NCBI GenBank assembly: GCA_050251615.1
Contig: JBFWMM010000001.1
Span: forward strand, 88,687 to 152,686
Direction of reading: 5' to 3'
DNA: 64,000 bases
Source of the DNA: Phycisphaerae bacterium
GTDB lineage: Bacteria; Planctomycetota; Phycisphaerae; Sedimentisphaerales; Sedimentisphaeraceae
Positions within the stretch are counted from its first letter, which is position 1; each line of letters starts with the position of its first letter. Of the stretch, positions 26,859-34,759 are shown piece after piece. A program made the translations under genes and the position numbers. The notes below the pieces were generated by a model. That model had not been told where the DNA came from. It searched no databases and saw nothing but the letters and a program-made list of their open reading frames with translations.

Positions 26859-27287
26859 ATGAAAAGTTTCATGGCAAAAAAAGGCCAGGTAGAGCAAAAA
26901 TGGCTCCTGGTTGACGCTACCGACATGGTACTCGGTCGTCTGGCGGTATCTGTTGCTACTATCCTTATGGGTAAGCACAAGCCGACATACACCCCCCATG
27001 TTGATACGGGCGATTACGTTATTATCGTAAACGCGGACAAGATCAAAGTTACCGGTAAAAAAGCTGACCAGAAGTTCTACGACTACTACACCCGCTATCC
27101 AGGCGGACGTAAGGTTGTGTCGTTCAAGGAAATGATGGAGAAGAAGCCGGAACAGGTTGTAAGACTGGCAGTAAAGCGCATGCTTCCGAAGACGAAGATG
27201 GGCGATGCCATGCTTGGCAAGCTTAAAATCTACAGTGGCCCCGAGCACCAGCAGGTTGCTCAGATGCCCGAGAAAATTGAACTGTAA
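26859..27287 (+). CDS. rplM: 50S ribosomal protein L13
   Basis: LGRLA, GKHKPTYTPHVDTGD, YTRYPGG. Confidence 0.97.
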   Translation: MKSFMAKKGQVEQKWLLVDATDMVLGRLAVSVATILMGKHKPTYTPHVDTGDYVIIVNADKIKVTGKKADQKFYDYYTRYPGGRKVVSFKEMMEKKPEQVVRLAVKRMLPKTKMGDAMLGKLKIYSGPEHQQVAQMPEKIEL

Positions 27288-27304
27288 TTGAAGGGTTTAG
27301 AAGA

Positions 27305-27790
27305 ATGACAGAAACAACTCAAACCCCGCTTATCGACCCGGCAGCAGTCGGCATTCAGACAGAAGCAGTTTCCACCGGCCCCAAGGCAACCCCCGACAAG
27401 GGCGGTTTTATCTGGGGAGTGGGCAGGCGCAAAAGCTCAGTAGCACGCGTCCGCATCAAACCCGGCAAAGGCGAGCTTAAAGTCAACGGTAAAGAGCTCA
27501 ACGAGTACTTCAAGCTTGAGCAGGACCAGGAGGCGGTTGTCGCTCCCCTGAAGACCTGCAATGTATTGAAGAACTTTGATGTGTTCGTAAACGTTAATGG
27601 CGGCGGCACAACCGGCCAGGCAGGCGCTACGCTTCTCGGCGTTGCAAGAGCTTTGGTTAACTACGATGAAGCGGGCTTCAGTAAGGAACTGCGCGAGGCA
27701 GGTCTGCTTACACGCGACGGCCGCATGAAAGAGCGTAAGAAACCGGGCCAGAGGGGCGCAAGAAGGAAGTTCCAGTTCTCCAAACGTTAA
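27305..27790 (+). CDS. rpsI: 30S ribosomal protein S9 with N-terminal extension
   Basis: GRRKSSVARV, GGGTTGQAGA, ERKKPG..ARRKFQFSKR. Confidence 0.97.
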   Translation: MTETTQTPLIDPAAVGIQTEAVSTGPKATPDKGGFIWGVGRRKSSVARVRIKPGKGELKVNGKELNEYFKLEQDQEAVVAPLKTCNVLKNFDVFVNVNGGGTTGQAGATLLGVARALVNYDEAGFSKELREAGLLTRDGRMKERKKPGQRGARRKFQFSKR

Positions 27791-27819
27791 CAGGGTTCCA
27801 CCTCTCAAACGAGACATAC

Positions 27820-27856
27820 AAAACCGCGCCGGCATAATATCGGTGCGGTTTTTTTA
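27820..27856 (+). terminator. Intrinsic terminator after rpsI
   Basis: AAAACCGCGCCG-loop-CGGTGCGGTTTTTTT. Confidence 0.8.
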
Positions 27857-27991
27857 TTGCAACGCCTGAACCTCCCTTATTGCTGGGGGGGGGCGAAACC
27901 AAATCTGAACTGTACATCGCACGGCTTATGCCGTTGCGCTGTTTGCCGATTTGATATCTCCTGCGTCGGATTGATTTGACGCTACCGTTTC

Positions 27992-28015
27992 GGGCGTGAT
28001 GAATCACGCCCCTAC
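27992..28015 (-). repeat. GTAG-type REP-like palindrome
   Basis: Minus strand GTAGGGGCGTGATTCATCACGCCC: GTAG followed by a GGGCGTGAT/ATCACGCCC stem. Confidence 0.6.
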
Positions 28016-28041
28016 GGCGGCGAATCGCGGTTCCCCTGCGA

Positions 28042-28896
28042 TTACCTGCGTGCGGGCAACGTCTTGTACCAGACGTTCATATCCTCGAAGCTGCCGCCGA
28101 TCTGTGTATTGCGGATGAGTCTGCCGCCGAACTCATAACCTTGCGTAGCGAAGGTGATATTCATTCCGAATGATGCCGCGCGAGCTATCGTGTATGCTGT
28201 TATGATGCCTTTTGCCTGCACAACCTCTTCCATCTGGGCAAGAAGCACGCTTGCAAGCGATTGGCCACGAGCCTCGGGTAGCGTGGCAAAATCTGTCATC
28301 TCGGCGTTTTTCAGCTCATTGTCAACCTCGGCCGAGGAGAGTGCGATGAGCTTGCCGTCCGCATTTCGGACGCCGAAATAATACACGTTGTCTGCCATGG
28401 TTTCCCTTATGTATGCAGGGTCAAAAATAGGGAACGGGTAGCTGTCAAAGACTACATCATAGATTCTGGCCATCGCTTCTGCGTCATCGGGAGTGCACTT
28501 AGATATGTTGAATCCCTCCGGCAGCTCCGCAGCGGGCTTATTCTGCGCCTGCTTCTCCCTGCACGCCTTCATTACGTCTTCGTTGGCCTGCGGGCTGGCG
28601 CTCTTGTGTCTCTCATCGCTCAGATAGTACCCGAGCAGCTTTGCGGCCATATGCCCCTTGTAGAAGCCTGGAATCCTCGCCTCATCCTCAAAGCCGGCGT
28701 GTCTGAAGGCCTGTGCATAGTCTGCGGGAACCTTCACAAAGACTTTGGAGTATCCCTTTGCTTCGGCGAGTTTTATCAGCTCCGCCGGCACGCCTTCACT
28801 GCCTACCAGATTGAATTTCATAAGGTATATGCGGTCGTTGGATTTTCCGTGCTGGATTGTCTGATTGTGAAAGATTTCGATTGTATCAGGACTCAT
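28042..28896 (-). CDS. ablB: Beta-lysine N-acetyltransferase (GNAT)
   Basis: QHGKSNDRIYLMK, AEMTDFATLPEARG, AYTIARA.S.GMN, G.L..NTQIGG.FEDMNVWYK; in an operon with a lysine 2,3-aminomutase gene. Confidence 0.85.
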   Translation of the reverse strand: MSPDTIEIFHNQTIQHGKSNDRIYLMKFNLVGSEGVPAELIKLAEAKGYSKVFVKVPADYAQAFRHAGFEDEARIPGFYKGHMAAKLLGYYLSDERHKSASPQANEDVMKACREKQAQNKPAAELPEGFNISKCTPDDAEAMARIYDVVFDSYPFPIFDPAYIRETMADNVYYFGVRNADGKLIALSSAEVDNELKNAEMTDFATLPEARGQSLASVLLAQMEEVVQAKGIITAYTIARAASFGMNITFATQGYEFGGRLIRNTQIGGSFEDMNVWYKTLPARR

Positions 28897-28911
28897 TGTA
28901 GTGTTTAACCT

Positions 28912-29598
28912 CTATTCTGTTTGCTCTAAAATGATTCTGTCTATATTTCCGGTTGTTTTAATTACGCCTTCCTCCAGGAAGACTCCGTGTGTTGCCGTCT
29001 GCTTTGCAAATGCAAGGTCGTGTGTTACTATAACAAATTTAGTTTCGCCTTGAAGCTCCGAAAGCCACGAGGCAAAGTCTGTAGTTGTTCGGGCGTCAAG
29101 GGCGCTTGTTGGCTCATCGAGGAGCATATAACGCGGCTGTAGCATCAGCCCACGGGCAATCGCAACCCTTTGCGCCTGTCCGCCGCTTATCTGAGCAGGA
29201 TACCTTTCGGCGAGCTCAGCAATCGAAAGTTTTTCAAGCATAGCTTCCGCATTCTCTCTCGCGGCCGAAGGGTTGCTGCCGAGCGCTTTAATTGGCGCAA
29301 GTGTCATATTGTCCATAACCGTCAGATGTGGAAACAGATTGAGCTTCTGAAATACAACGCCCAGTTTCGTGCGAAACTCCTTTTTGGCAATCAGAGCCGA
29401 ATCTTCGCCATCAATAAAGATCTTTCCACTTGATGGTGTAAGAAATCTTGCGATACAGTTCAGCAGGGTGGTTTTTCCCGAACCGCTTTGGCCGAGAATT
29501 GCGGATATATGGTCTTGAGCCAGTTTTACACTGATATTGTCCAGTGCATTCTGCTTAGAGCCTCGATATCTATAGCAAAGGTTTTGTATTTCTATCAC
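28912..29598 (-). CDS. Polar amino acid ABC transporter ATP-binding protein
   Basis: Walker A GQSGSGKT, VFQKLNLFPHLT, ISGGQ, LLDEPT and VTHD; GTGA overlap with the upstream gene. Confidence 0.9.
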   Translation of the reverse strand: MIEIQNLCYRYRGSKQNALDNISVKLAQDHISAILGQSGSGKTTLLNCIARFLTPSSGKIFIDGEDSALIAKKEFRTKLGVVFQKLNLFPHLTVMDNMTLAPIKALGSNPSAARENAEAMLEKLSIAELAERYPAQISGGQAQRVAIARGLMLQPRYMLLDEPTSALDARTTTDFASWLSELQGETKFVIVTHDLAFAKQTATHGVFLEEGVIKTTGNIDRIILEQTE

Positions 29599-31046
29599 TG
29601 GCTGAATCCCCTCGAGCGAATCTTATTTTCTAAAGACGCGGCAAGTTTCATAAGCGGGAACGTAACTACGAAAAACATCACTGCTACAATGAAGTAAAAC
29701 CGACCCGGCTCAAATGTAACCGATATGATTGCCTGCGCTTCACGTATAACTTCGGAAACCGAAATCACAGCTACAAGGGCCGTGTCCTTAGTAAGCGCTA
29801 CGACCGAATTCATAAGCGGGGGCAAAGCTATGCGAAACGCCTGCGGCCAGACAACATACCTGAATACCTGATAGTGCGAAAGGCTCAGCGCACGGCCGGC
29901 AAGAATCTGGCCTCTGTCAACGCTCATCAATCCCGAGCGAATGACCTCAGCCATATATGCCATGGAATTTACGCCGAGTGTGCCTATTGCGGCTGCGTAC
30001 GGAGAGAGGCCGAGCCCCATCCATGCGAACAGCAATTGTATGAGCACGGGCGTTCCGCGCAGGAAATCGACGATTGTGCGAACCGGCCAGTAAGCCAGCT
30101 TCCACGCACCCTCGGCGTGGTTGAGGATAATTGCGCAAGGCACGGCGAAAACGAAGCCGACCAGAAGCGAAGATGCGGCTATGAGCAGGGTTACCGCAAA
30201 ACCTGAAGCAAGCTTTCTGACTATAACAGATGCAGGTAAGCCGTCTGAGGTACCGTCAGCGGGGGAAGAGGTGATGCCGAAGTATCTACCCCGTATTTTC
30301 TGCATTGTACCGTCAGCGCGCATCTGCCGCAAGGCGCCATTTATCTGCGAGAGCAGGGCGTTGTCTTCCTTGCGTACGGGGATGGCAATATCTTCGCTGT
30401 AGAGCAATTCGCCTACCGGAACGAACGGTCTCTGTGCGCTTTTGATCTGCCACAAGCCTACAAGCTTGTCCGATACAAACCCGTCAATACGCATTGATTT
30501 GAGCAGGTCAAATATCTCCACGCTTGATTTCAGCGTTACAACATCAATCTCAGGGTGCTTCTCGTCGAGATAATGCTGGTACGTTTCGCCGAGCACCGCG
30601 GCTATTCTTTTGCCGCCGCATTCGTTAATATCGTAGAGACGAGAGGGGTTTTCCCTGTGAACGAAGAGCTGCGCACCGGAGCGGTAATAAGGCTCCGAAA
30701 AGTTTACTACCTCAGCGCGTTCCGGTGTAATCGCCATCGAACTGACAATCGCATCGTACTTGCCCGCAAGCAATCCGGCCAGAATGCCGTCCCACTCTGT
30801 CGAGGTGATCTGTGGCTCGCGATTGATTCGCTTTGCAATCTCGCGAGAAACGTCCACATCGAAACCGGCAAGCTCACCGGTGTTGTCGTAAAAGCTGAAC
30901 GGAGGGTATTTCCCCGTCAAAGCTATGCGAAGCGGTAGCCCTTCTACGGCCTGGTCTGCTTCTGCCGCGGTTGCAGATATTGCCGGCAAAAGCAGGAAGC
31001 AGATTACAGTAAAAGGCAGCGTAAAGAGTGTTTTTTTAAGCGTCAT
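29595..31046 (-). CDS. Fused polar amino acid ABC substrate-binding protein plus permease
   Basis: Signal peptide; family-3 SBP (YPPFSF, GFDVDV, ITPER..FSEPYY); permease ([19 protein letters not shown]). Start at ATG 31046 overlaps the ablA stop. Confidence 0.88.
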
Positions 31047-32349
31047 CTCTGCGGTCGTATCTGGCATTTCCTTCCGGAACAAGCGATATTGTGTCATCGT
31101 CGTCCGCCAGTAGTTTCTGTATGCCGACGGTCGCTCTCTCAACGGCGTCATCAAGCGCCAGTTGCAAGTTACAGTGTTCACAGTCTCTGTCGCAGTACCA
31201 CGGTTCATAACTGTCGGGTTCTTTGTACGTGGTAATTACGCCCTCATAGTTTCTCAGGATAACCTTGTTGGTTGACCAGGAGATGAGGTAATTGGGCATA
31301 ATGGGGATTTTGCCACCACCGCCGGGCGCATCAATGACGTACGTAGGCACGCAGAGGCCGCTTGTGTGGCCGATGAGGCTCTCCAGTATTTCGATTCCCT
31401 TACCGATTGGTGTGCGGAAATGCGAAAGACCTTCGGAGAGGTCGCACTGATAAAGGTAGTACGGGCGCACCCTGTTGGCCACGAGCTTATTCACGAGCGA
31501 GCGCATAATACGCGGGCAGTCGTTCACGCCTGCAAGCAGGACAGACTGATTGCCCAGCGGTACTCCCGCATCGGCAAGCCTCGCCAGCGCAAACCTCGAT
31601 GACGCTGTAATCTCGCGCGGATGGTTGAAGTGCGTGTTAATCCATATGGGGTGATGCTTCTTTATCATCTCGCAAAAATCTTCGGTAATCCTCTGCGGCA
31701 GAACGACCGGTGTTCTTGTGCCGATGCGTACCATTTCAACGTGCTCTATTTTGTCCAGCTCGGTGAGGATTTCATCGAGAAGCTCATCGGAGAGCAGAAG
31801 CGGGTCGCCGCCGGAAAGCAGCACGTCTCTGATCTGTGGCGTGTTGCGGATATAATCCAGTCCGGCGTTAAGGTCTTCACGCGAGGGTACTGAATCGACA
31901 TCACCCACTTTCCTCTTTCTCGTGCAGTGGCGGCAGTACATCGAGCAGACATTGCTCACGAGAAACAGCACACGGTCGGGGTATCTGTGCGTGATGCAGG
32001 GAGCGGGGGAGTCCTCGTCTTCGTGGAGCGGGTCGGCCATATCATTCTTCGATATGACCAGCTCCAGCGGAGAGGGAAATGCCTGTAAGAAAATCGGGTC
32101 GTATTTCAGGTTGTCTGTGTCAATCAGGGAGAGGTAGTAGGGAGTTATGGAAATAGGAAACTTCTTTACCGTACGGTTGAAATCCTCACGTGTTTCTTCG
32201 TCGAGCTTGATGTCGAGAAGTTCCTCGAAGGTTTCCAGGTCTTTTACCTGATGTTTCATCTGCCATTTCCAGTTGTTCCAGAGGCTGTGTACAGCTTTCG
32301 AATCTATGGCGTTTATGATATGTTTCTGTTGTGTTGTAAGTTTTCGCAT
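31036..32349 (-). CDS. ablA: Lysine 2,3-aminomutase (radical SAM), AblA/KamA type
   Basis: [42 protein letters not shown]; C-terminal CDRDCEHC extension. Confidence 0.9.
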
Positions 32350-32915
32350 TATAATTCCTCTGAGTTTATTTCATTTATTTTAACTCTTTCGCCAGACATC
32401 AAATTCGGCGATGAGTCGAGCTCGCAGGCTCCCATCATTGATACTGTCTGTTCGAGTGAAAGTGTGAGCGTGGCCTGCTCAAGCTCGGAGAGCTCTTCAA
32501 AAGCCTCGGAAAACTGCTCCTGGAGCAGCGTGGGCGCGGTCCTGGCAACTTCTTTGCCCGTTTCTGTAATCGTCAGTGCTATCTTTCTCCTGTCATGGCT
32601 GCTTTGGACGCGGTTGACCATTTTTCTTGCCACAAGCCTGTCAACGATACCGGTTGTAGTGCTCATCCCGAGCGAAATGTCTTCGGCGAGCTCTGAGAGT
32701 GTCTTGGGCTTGCCGTCCATTAACGAGTGCAGGCAGATGAGCTGCGGGGTGGTTATATTGTATTCTTTGTGCAGGCGGCGGGAGTGTATATCAACCGCTC
32801 TGATTATCTTTCTGAGCGATCGAAGTATCCGGACCTGATAATCCGTTGCCCTGTTTGAGCCTGCCTGTTTATATTTGTCCATTGTATTTGAGTCTATCTG
32901 TTTATGGTTATCCAT
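32349..32915 (-). CDS. MarR family regulator, EctR/CosR-like
   Basis: [53 protein letters not shown]; TAATG overlap with ablA. Confidence 0.8.
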
Positions 32916-32947
32916 TGTATTTGTTGCCGGTGGTGTGCATGTAAAAA

Positions 32948-32965
32948 CGTTTCGTACACGAAGTA
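32948..32965 (-). promoter_or_regulatory. Candidate MarR operator (8-2-8 pseudopalindrome)
   Basis: Minus strand TACTTCGT-GT-ACGAAACG, directly downstream of and touching the -10 box. Confidence 0.55.
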
Positions 32966-32992
32966 TTATCGCTATTCCGCCCGTAAAGTCAA
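32965..32992 (-). promoter_or_regulatory. Sigma70 promoter of the marR-abl operon
   Basis: Minus strand TTGACT-N16-GATAAT. Confidence 0.55.
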
Positions 32993-33022
32993 ATCAGACG
33001 ATTTGTCATCCCCTGCGTAATA

Positions 33023-33038
33023 TGGCAGGGCGTTTGCC
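33023..33038 (+). promoter_or_regulatory. Possible sigma54 promoter upstream of pgi
   Basis: TGGCAGGGCGTTTGCC fits GG-N10-GC with mismatches to consensus. Confidence 0.3.
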
Positions 33039-33097
33039 GGTGACCTTTTATTTGCGCAATCTTTCCGTATAATACTCACCGACACTTTTTATCATAA

Positions 33098-34759
<1,662 letters not shown>

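Follow-up and report, generated by a model that had tools for sequence, protein, structure and literature searches.

Why are the two genes for making a compatible solute split by the genes of an importer, and which solute does that importer carry? We met this question in a 64,000-nt stretch of contig JBFWMM010000001.1 of a Phycisphaerae bacterium (hereafter the window, in whose numbering the operon coordinates are given), where five minus-strand open reading frames are packed into 28042-32915: marR, ablA, a gene fusing a substrate-binding protein (SBP) to a permease, an ATPase gene and ablB. The enzymes AblA and AblB belong to the pathway that yields N-epsilon-acetyl-beta-lysine; the two genes between them encode an ATP-binding cassette (ABC) system. 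In our judgement this is probably a module, under repression by MarR, for both synthesis of the osmolyte and its uptake through a dedicated importer.

The two enzymes were identified with high scores. AblA reached 768 bits with TIGR03820 (NCBI equivalog cut-off 525), and the glutamate and arginine aminomutase models both stayed under their own cut-offs. When aligned to the lysine 2,3-aminomutase of Clostridium subterminale (2A5H; 518 bits), AblA was found to keep the CxxxCxxC motif as well as the residues that match D293, D330 and K337 (2A5H numbering); we take K337 to be the lysine that binds pyridoxal phosphate (PLP), and D293 and D330 to be the aspartates that hold the epsilon-ammonium group of the substrate. 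AblB lies above its equivalog cut-off as well (TIGR03827, 334 bits, cut-off 205), contains the GNAT domain PF00583, and shares a coupled same-strand unit with the aminomutase, with only the two transporter genes in between. From these sequences, AblA would convert L-lysine to beta-lysine, and AblB would acetylate the epsilon-amino group of beta-lysine to give N-epsilon-acetyl-beta-lysine, a zwitterionic osmolyte.

The five genes form one coupled unit. Reading the junctions directly, we found that the TAA of marR and the ATG of ablA overlap by 1 base (TAATG) with a GAGGAA ribosome-binding site upstream, that the fusion gene (ATG at 31046) overlaps ablA by 11 bp, that 4 bp are shared by the permease and ATPase genes, and that the ATPase gene is followed by ablB after a gap of 15 bp. 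An alternative ATG of the fusion gene at 31067 (JGI gene call P0001, 490 aa) would give an overlap of 32 bp with ablA. The same locus, with identical gene calls, is also carried by a second public contig (JGI metagenome 3300042254). An earlier note on this DNA, made from its letters, had proposed the same gene order, coupling, overlaps and gap, and all of them agree with the junction reads; its gene identities are likewise borne out by the Pfam and NCBIfam scores.

The middle two genes are predicted to encode a type I ABC importer of the PAAT family with a GlnPQ-like build. The three domains of this family (TC 3.A.1.3), PF00497, PF00528 and PF00005, are encoded together. In the fusion protein, PF00497 covers residues 39-257 and PF00528 residues 316-477, and the AlphaFold model (pLDDT 76) has an N-terminal signal or anchor helix (9-34), a two-lobed binding domain (39-256), a disordered linker (258-269) and a helical membrane domain (272-478). 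The permease domain scored 56.1 bits with TIGR01726 (cut-off 42.2). The ATPase scored 130.6 bits with PF00005, and its translation contains a Walker A motif (GQSGSGKT), a signature motif (ISGGQ) and a Walker B motif (LLDEPT); its top NCBIfam matches, GlnQ, ArtP and EhuA, were each under the cut-off. With the binding domain tethered to the permease, the complex would be a homodimer with two binding domains and two ATPases.

The association of this importer with the abl genes is conserved. By scanning one genome per GTDB species, we found 55 loci with orthologues of the fusion protein (48-75% identity) from Planctomycetota, Lentisphaerota, Kiritimatiellota, Verrucomicrobiota, Omnitrophota, Fibrobacterota, Sumerlaeota, Marinimicrobia and Desulfobacterota, the closest homologues being in metagenome-assembled genomes (MAGs) of Lentisphaerota, Kiritimatiellota and Planctomycetota. 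About 25 of the 55 loci, from at least seven phyla, have ablA directly upstream and/or ablB downstream. The exact order ablA-fusion-ATPase-ablB was found in at least 15 of the 55, and the full five-gene order with marR in four (L004, L006, L007 and L009, from Lentisphaeria and Planctomycetota); a search for this order in other genomes was a check that the earlier note had suggested, and it was positive. Further linked examples came from a search based on AblB (L056-L061, L141, L191, L194 and L201). Over both searches, Phycisphaerae, Fibrobacterota, Chitinivibrionales and Verrucomicrobiota are among the groups that have ablA-fusion-ATPase-ablB. A neighbour-joining tree of 57 orthologues has linked loci in all its major branches, with the unlinked loci nested among them. 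Hence, the linkage looks ancestral and repeatedly lost.

We then placed this arrangement among 155 non-identical ablB loci. The canonical layout, with ablA and ablB adjacent, accounts for 96 of the 155, as expected from the statement of the earlier note that the two genes are typically adjacent. The fused ABC system is present in 13 clusters, an SSS-family Na+/solute symporter in 26, and an ABC system of the LAO type upstream of ablB in 3 (Desulfobacteraceae); other layouts make up 9 loci, and 8 are on truncated contigs. The symporter (about 470 aa, PutP-like, PF00474; about 165 bits with TIGR00813, just under the cut-off of 184) is not a homologue of the ABC system, yet it is usually found at the same place, with ablA on one side and ablB on the other, and often with the same MarR in front (loci L063, L064, L076-L078, L119, L127, L185, L186, L193 and L217-L282). 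About 59 of its 80 nearest orthologues belong to abl clusters, and for 45 of these the order is exactly ablA-SSS-ablB; the cultured Oligosphaera ethanolica DSM 24202 has it in a MarR-AblA-SSS-AblB cluster (L230). The symporter is thus tied to the abl pathway even more tightly than the ABC system. The earlier note implied a local peculiarity; instead, the architecture of the operon is widespread, occurs in many genomes, and is one of at least two widespread versions of abl clusters that bear a transporter.

The symporter also bears on the ligand. Characterised SSS carriers (TC 2.A.21) transport solutes that are neutral, zwitterionic or anionic (proline, for example), and not basic amino acids. 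Since a carrier of this family replaces the ABC system, its solute range favours the zwitterionic product of the pathway as the ligand. In addition, some clusters contain an MscS-like channel gene (PF00924, about 300 aa) between ablA and the transporter gene (Table 1), and an MscS gene lies next to kamA-ablB in 'Candidatus Methanoperedens' (PMC11337218) and likewise in a propionate-oxidising syntroph (PMC11201294). Hence, with MscS inside or next to abl clusters, synthesis seems to be paired with a release valve and an uptake system. The importer would then recapture N-epsilon-acetyl-beta-lysine that has leaked or has been released through mechanosensitive channels, would also scavenge it from outside, and would be dedicated to the abl pathway. 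A dedicated transporter was only a possibility in the earlier note; the linkage throughout the tree, the symporter in the same slot and the MscS genes in the clusters strengthen the idea.

The binding pocket is nearly invariant and differs from that of LAO at the side-chain end. We mapped the pocket residues of 57 orthologues onto LAO by alignment, and the site positions were confirmed by the PDB series of LAO mutants. The residues R77, D161 and S70 of LAO correspond to R110, D193 and S103 here and are invariant. Hence, an amino acid head group (carboxylate and amine) is bound. The stacking aromatics are retained (Y47 and W85). The acidic D11 of LAO, which meets the end of a cationic side chain, is Thr44 here, and all 57 orthologues have Thr or Ser in its place; this position is Glu in AncQR, Asp in GlnPQ and Glu in the LAO-type protein of the Desulfobacteraceae locus L079. 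Two residues are new relative to LAO, a Lys (K46) that never varies and a Glu (E154) that hardly does, and Q122 is replaced by Tyr or Phe. The pocket is identical in orthologues that are linked to abl genes and in those that are not. Hence, there is apparently one specificity across the family. These residues favour an amino-acid-like zwitterion with an uncharged polar tail, as is N-epsilon-acetyl-beta-lysine. We tentatively name this compound as the likeliest ligand, with a chance that we put somewhat short of even. An osmolyte is a known ligand of family-3 binding proteins, EhuB for ectoine being the precedent. The sole departure of the window protein in the pocket region is residue 102 (S69 in LAO), which is Ser here and Gly in all 56 other orthologues.

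Several observations weigh against an importer dedicated to the finished osmolyte. The solved binding proteins nearest to the binding domain by sequence and fold (TmArgBP, AncQR, AncCDT-1, NocT, TTC0807 and LAO) bind arginine, lysine, ornithine or opines, and D63, the equivalent of LAO D30, is invariant, which leaves room for a cationic side chain. Two loci, L015 and L182, hold both the fused ABC importer and the symporter, which may carry different solutes. In Desulfobacteraceae (L079, L112 and L126), a four-gene PAAT ABC system with a separate binding protein that belongs to the LAO subfamily (TIGR01096, 286 bits, cut-off 256) is found immediately upstream of ablB, and the flank contains no ablA; this system looks like an importer of lysine. 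About half of the importer orthologues do not adjoin abl genes. No ablB was found in the genomes of L002, L005 and L008, from related Planctomycetota, by a pattern-based scan with the AblB of L006, which does not prove its absence, so the importer may work also without the pathway. One Omnitrophota MAG does have both, with the importer (L029) and ablA-ablB (L074) on separate contigs. Lastly, the ATPase has no osmosensing domain of the CBS type.

Part of this evidence would fit an importer that feeds the pathway, by taking up L-lysine, or perhaps ornithine or arginine, and so sparing the cost of lysine biosynthesis. TmArgBP, AncQR, TTC0807 and LAO bind cationic amino acids, the head-group residues are conserved along with the D30 equivalent, the Desulfobacteraceae have their LAO-subfamily system beside ablB, and the pair of transporters in L015 and L182 could be a precursor carrier and a product carrier; the betT/choline transporters within glycine betaine clusters are a precedent for such precursor import. 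We nevertheless consider lysine import rather unlikely. The Thr or Ser at the D11 position in every orthologue, with the invariant Lys two residues on, argues against a cationic side chain, the binding domain stays under the cut-off of the LAO/HisJ subfamily (TIGR01096, 160.7 bits, cut-off 256.35), and free lysine in natural waters and sediments is presumably scarce compared with the pools that an osmolyte needs. Uptake of beta-lysine, leaked or released by neighbours and then acetylated by AblB, meets the same objection from the pocket, since beta-lysine is cationic. It is suggested by loci that have a transporter and ablB but no ablA within the flank (L020, L036, L079, L112, L126 and L229); however, ablA may lie elsewhere in these genomes, and the abl literature that we found treats beta-lysine as a pathway intermediate only and does not describe it as an environmental solute. 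We regard this as very improbable.

An importer for an unrelated polar amino acid (glutamine, glutamate or cystine), which entered the operon through shared regulation by osmotic stress or through cluster transfer, is improbable too, if less so than beta-lysine uptake. The top NCBIfam match of the binding domain is TcyJ/FliY (NF008426, 163.7 bits), the GlnP, GlnQ and GlnH models match as well, the fused build is that of GlnPQ, and the conserved pair of a Lys and an acidic residue could recognise an amide or a second zwitterion, presumably by analogy with the site of the glutamine-binding protein GlnBP. The many loci unlinked to abl genes could be read in the same way, as could a pyridine nucleotide-disulphide oxidoreductase gene near the importer in three unlinked loci of the Omnitrophota type. 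However, the TcyJ match is far under its cut-off of 312, as the glutamine matches are under theirs (the binding domain is under every curated subfamily cut-off, including LAO, TcyJ, GlnH, ArtJ and EhuB), and the solved cystine binders (2YLN and 6A80; 85-96 bits) rank well below the cationic binders (AncQR, 138 bits), so we kept a cystine or glutamine importer as a minor rival only. Hitch-hiking would also hardly explain an abl linkage that extends over at least seven phyla and throughout the tree, or why the same slot is usually taken by a symporter that is mostly confined to abl clusters. Moreover, ORF clustering and Pfam gave no consistent alternative neighbour shared by the unlinked loci; their neighbours include an amidase, PilZ, an IS200 transposase, AbiEii, DUF364 and a Na+/H+ exchanger.

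The module that makes and takes up N-epsilon-acetyl-beta-lysine would be controlled by the product of its first gene. The regulator matches the MarR family (PF01047, 39.6 bits, cut-off 24.6; also PF22381 and PF12802) as a generic member: 16 NCBIfam models of the MarR family match, none of them reaching its cut-off, and its nearest solved relatives are generic MarR structures. In about 34 of the 155 ablB loci, ablA comes after the gene of a MarR homologue, with or without a transporter. From a k-mer and palindrome census across loci, we found a candidate operator, TTCGT-N2-ACGAA, which in the window reads TTCGTGTACGAA, begins 2 nt past the -10 hexamer GATAAT and is the only perfect copy of this palindrome within the 64 kb. 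Among 36 non-identical regions upstream of marR-ablA in other genomes, 9 contain a perfect palindrome and 10 a palindrome with one mismatch (19/36), compared with 0.015 perfect and 0.285 one-mismatch palindromes expected from composition-matched shuffles. Many of these copies come straight after a TATAAT-like box, and the flanking bases lengthen the palindrome towards AATATTTCGT-N2-ACGAAATATT. A generic search for inverted repeats in the region upstream of marR returned just one unrelated 9-nt pair.

The operator of an autoregulating MarR repressor at a transcription start would look like this palindrome. Judged by its place in the sequence, MarR would bind TTCGT-N2-ACGAA beside the -10 box and repress the entire operon, including its own gene, until an osmotic or ligand signal relieves the repression; induction by salt, and regulation in this direction, are what we would expect. 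A second half-site resembling TTCGTGT lies a few bases downstream of the palindrome in the upstream regions of L193, L009, L150 and L142, and these may be tandem operators.

The unit has just one promoter-like site, at its head, and just one hairpin resembling a terminator, at its end (Table 1). The predicted promoter has 10 of 12 consensus matches and is the top-scoring site of the scanned region 27700-33300. The hairpin sits between ablB (minus strand) and the convergent rpsI (plus strand) and is likely a bidirectional terminator common to both genes; on the minus strand, the stem is followed by a run of only four T bases. No riboswitch or RNA leader was found, since an Rfam search of 27000-34000 gave no match even at an E value of 0.1.

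Table 1. Coordinates of the operon and its flanking elements in the window, and of selected genes and clusters at abl and importer loci of other genomes
Feature	Position	Strand	Description
Predicted sigma-70-like promoter	32965..32992	-	TTGACT, 16 nt, GATAAT, upstream of marR; consensus match only
Candidate MarR operator	32951..32962		TTCGT-N2-ACGAA; TTCGTGTACGAA on the coding strand
marR	32349-32915	-	Winged-helix regulator of the MarR family, 188 aa; leads the operon
ablA (kamA)	31036-32349	-	Lysine 2,3-aminomutase, radical SAM and PLP, 437 aa
SBP-permease fusion	29595-31046	-	Signal peptide, family-3 substrate-binding domain and ABC permease, 483 aa
ABC ATPase	28912-29598	-	228 aa, without extra regulatory domain
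ablB	28042-28896	-	Beta-lysine N6-acetyltransferase, GNAT family, 284 aa
GC-rich hairpin	27820..27852		Between A and T runs; 13-pair stem, 7 G-C pairs (listed on the plus strand)
MscS-like channel	L222:3073-3978		
MscS-like channel	L223:3093-3995		
MscS-like channel	L226:3087-3992		
MscS-like channel	L033:7039-7926		
Symporter	L230:4001-5410		Oligosphaera ethanolica DSM 24202
Fused ABC importer and symporter	L015:5915-11865		
Fused ABC importer and symporter	L182:1085-8479		
Four-gene PAAT ABC system	L079:4783-8855		Desulfobacteraceae
Divergent KamA-family protein	L058:4189-5655		
Divergent KamA-family protein	L061:4213-5682		
Divergent KamA-family protein	L110:5109-6584		
ATP-grasp-GNAT fusion	L026:6160-8010		Omnitrophota, 616 aa
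PtsI-like PEP-utilising enzyme	L052:10053-11702		Planctomycetaceae
MarC-family membrane protein	L042:7291-7908		
MarC-family membrane protein	L043:11232-11843		
MarC-family membrane protein	L052:12604-13275		

Other abl clusters vary in their enzymes and neighbours. In clusters of Phycisphaerae and Bacteroidota, the slot of AblA is filled by a divergent KamA-family protein of 488-491 aa with an N-terminal extension (L058, L061, L110, L085, L100, L116, L270, L277 and L282); it has about 35% identity to AblA and scores 260-275 bits, under the TIGR03820 cut-off, and its function is predicted only. In the Omnitrophota locus L026, which lacks ablB, a protein in which a PurD-like ATP-grasp domain (310 bits, cut-off 288) is joined to an EctA-like GNAT domain is encoded between ablA and the genes of the fused ABC importer, and it may make a different derivative of beta-lysine. 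A PtsI-like enzyme that uses phosphoenolpyruvate (PEP) is encoded between the ATPase gene and ablB in L052, and a MarC-family membrane protein adjoins ablB in three loci (L042, L043 and L052).

Taken across these clusters, the ABC genes of the window are perhaps one version of a modular bacterial operon to make, release and recapture an osmolyte; we put this forward tentatively. Its parts would be AblA and AblB, an importer of the ABC or SSS type, sometimes MscS, and a MarR repressor over all of them with a TTCGT-N2-ACGAA operator, and it would extend over more than seven anaerobic phyla, mostly uncultured. Methanogens have N-epsilon-acetyl-beta-lysine as a major osmolyte, and the loci found here suggest that it is also a major osmolyte of many bacteria of sediments, digesters and the sea. 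We found no description of an importer, a MarR regulator or an operator for abl clusters, nor of any transporter that carries N-epsilon-acetyl-beta-lysine, within the searchable literature, subscription-only papers being outside its scope. There are now concrete candidates, namely importers of two unrelated families and a MarR regulator whose operator is predicted, and these make it testable whether this solute is recaptured and exchanged in anaerobic communities, as are ectoine and glycine betaine. A binding domain specific for this solute, if that is what it is, would be useful as a sensor or purification reagent, and the conserved operator gives a handle for predicting regulons in uncultured phyla.

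Compared with known systems, the biosynthetic part of the locus is familiar. The methanogen ablA-ablB operon and the bacterial kamA-ablB pairs share with it both enzymes, the same gene order and lysine-derived N-epsilon-acetyl-beta-lysine, whereas here a complete ABC importer splits the two genes and a marR gene stands in front. The methanogen operon is that of Methanosarcina mazei and others (Pflueger et al. 2003, as cited in PMC3543383). The clusters with MscS (PMC11337218 and PMC11201294) are alike in that a membrane protein for solute flux is encoded together with the abl genes; there it is a release valve, whereas the window operon has an ATP-driven importer and no MscS gene.

In build, the importer is closest to GlnPQ of Lactococcus lactis (6H30, 4KPT and 8B5D), also a PAAT type I importer in which a family-3 domain follows a signal peptide and is fused to the N-terminus of the permease. 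However, GlnPQ has two tandem binding domains and the window protein one, the pocket signature is Thr-Gly-Lys here and Asp-x-Ser in GlnPQ, and GlnPQ, unlike the window importer, has no link to an osmolyte pathway. EhuABCD resembles it in another way, as a PAAT ABC system that uses a family-3 binding protein to take up a compatible solute that is a zwitterion (ectoine or hydroxyectoine). The Ehu models match all three parts, the binding domain, the permease and the ATPase, but all far under the cut-offs (for EhuB, TIGR02995, 77.9 bits compared with 190.9). Hence, the window importer is not an Ehu orthologue. The Ehu subunits are separate, whereas the binding domain and permease of the window are fused, and Ehu is linked to catabolism of ectoine, not to its synthesis.

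The proposed logic, by which cells producing an osmolyte also express a transporter to retrieve what leaks, would be that of TeaABC for ectoine, GgtABCD for glucosylglycerol and OpuE for proline. OpuE belongs to the SSS family, as does the symporter of the alternative abl clusters; TeaABC and GgtABCD are of other transporter families (TRAP-T and CUT1 ABC), and their genes are mostly not found between biosynthetic genes. For the regulator, the analogy is with EctR1 and CosR, whose genes lie beside osmolyte genes and which repress at low salinity. The EctR1 site reportedly consists of two half-sites 2 bp apart and overlaps the -10 box. Both proteins are MarR-type repressors of genes by which compatible solutes are made or taken up, and autoregulation has been reported for EctR1 (bioRxiv 10.1101/845297). 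In contrast to their divergent arrangement, the marR of the window leads the operon that it would control and would be transcribed together with it.

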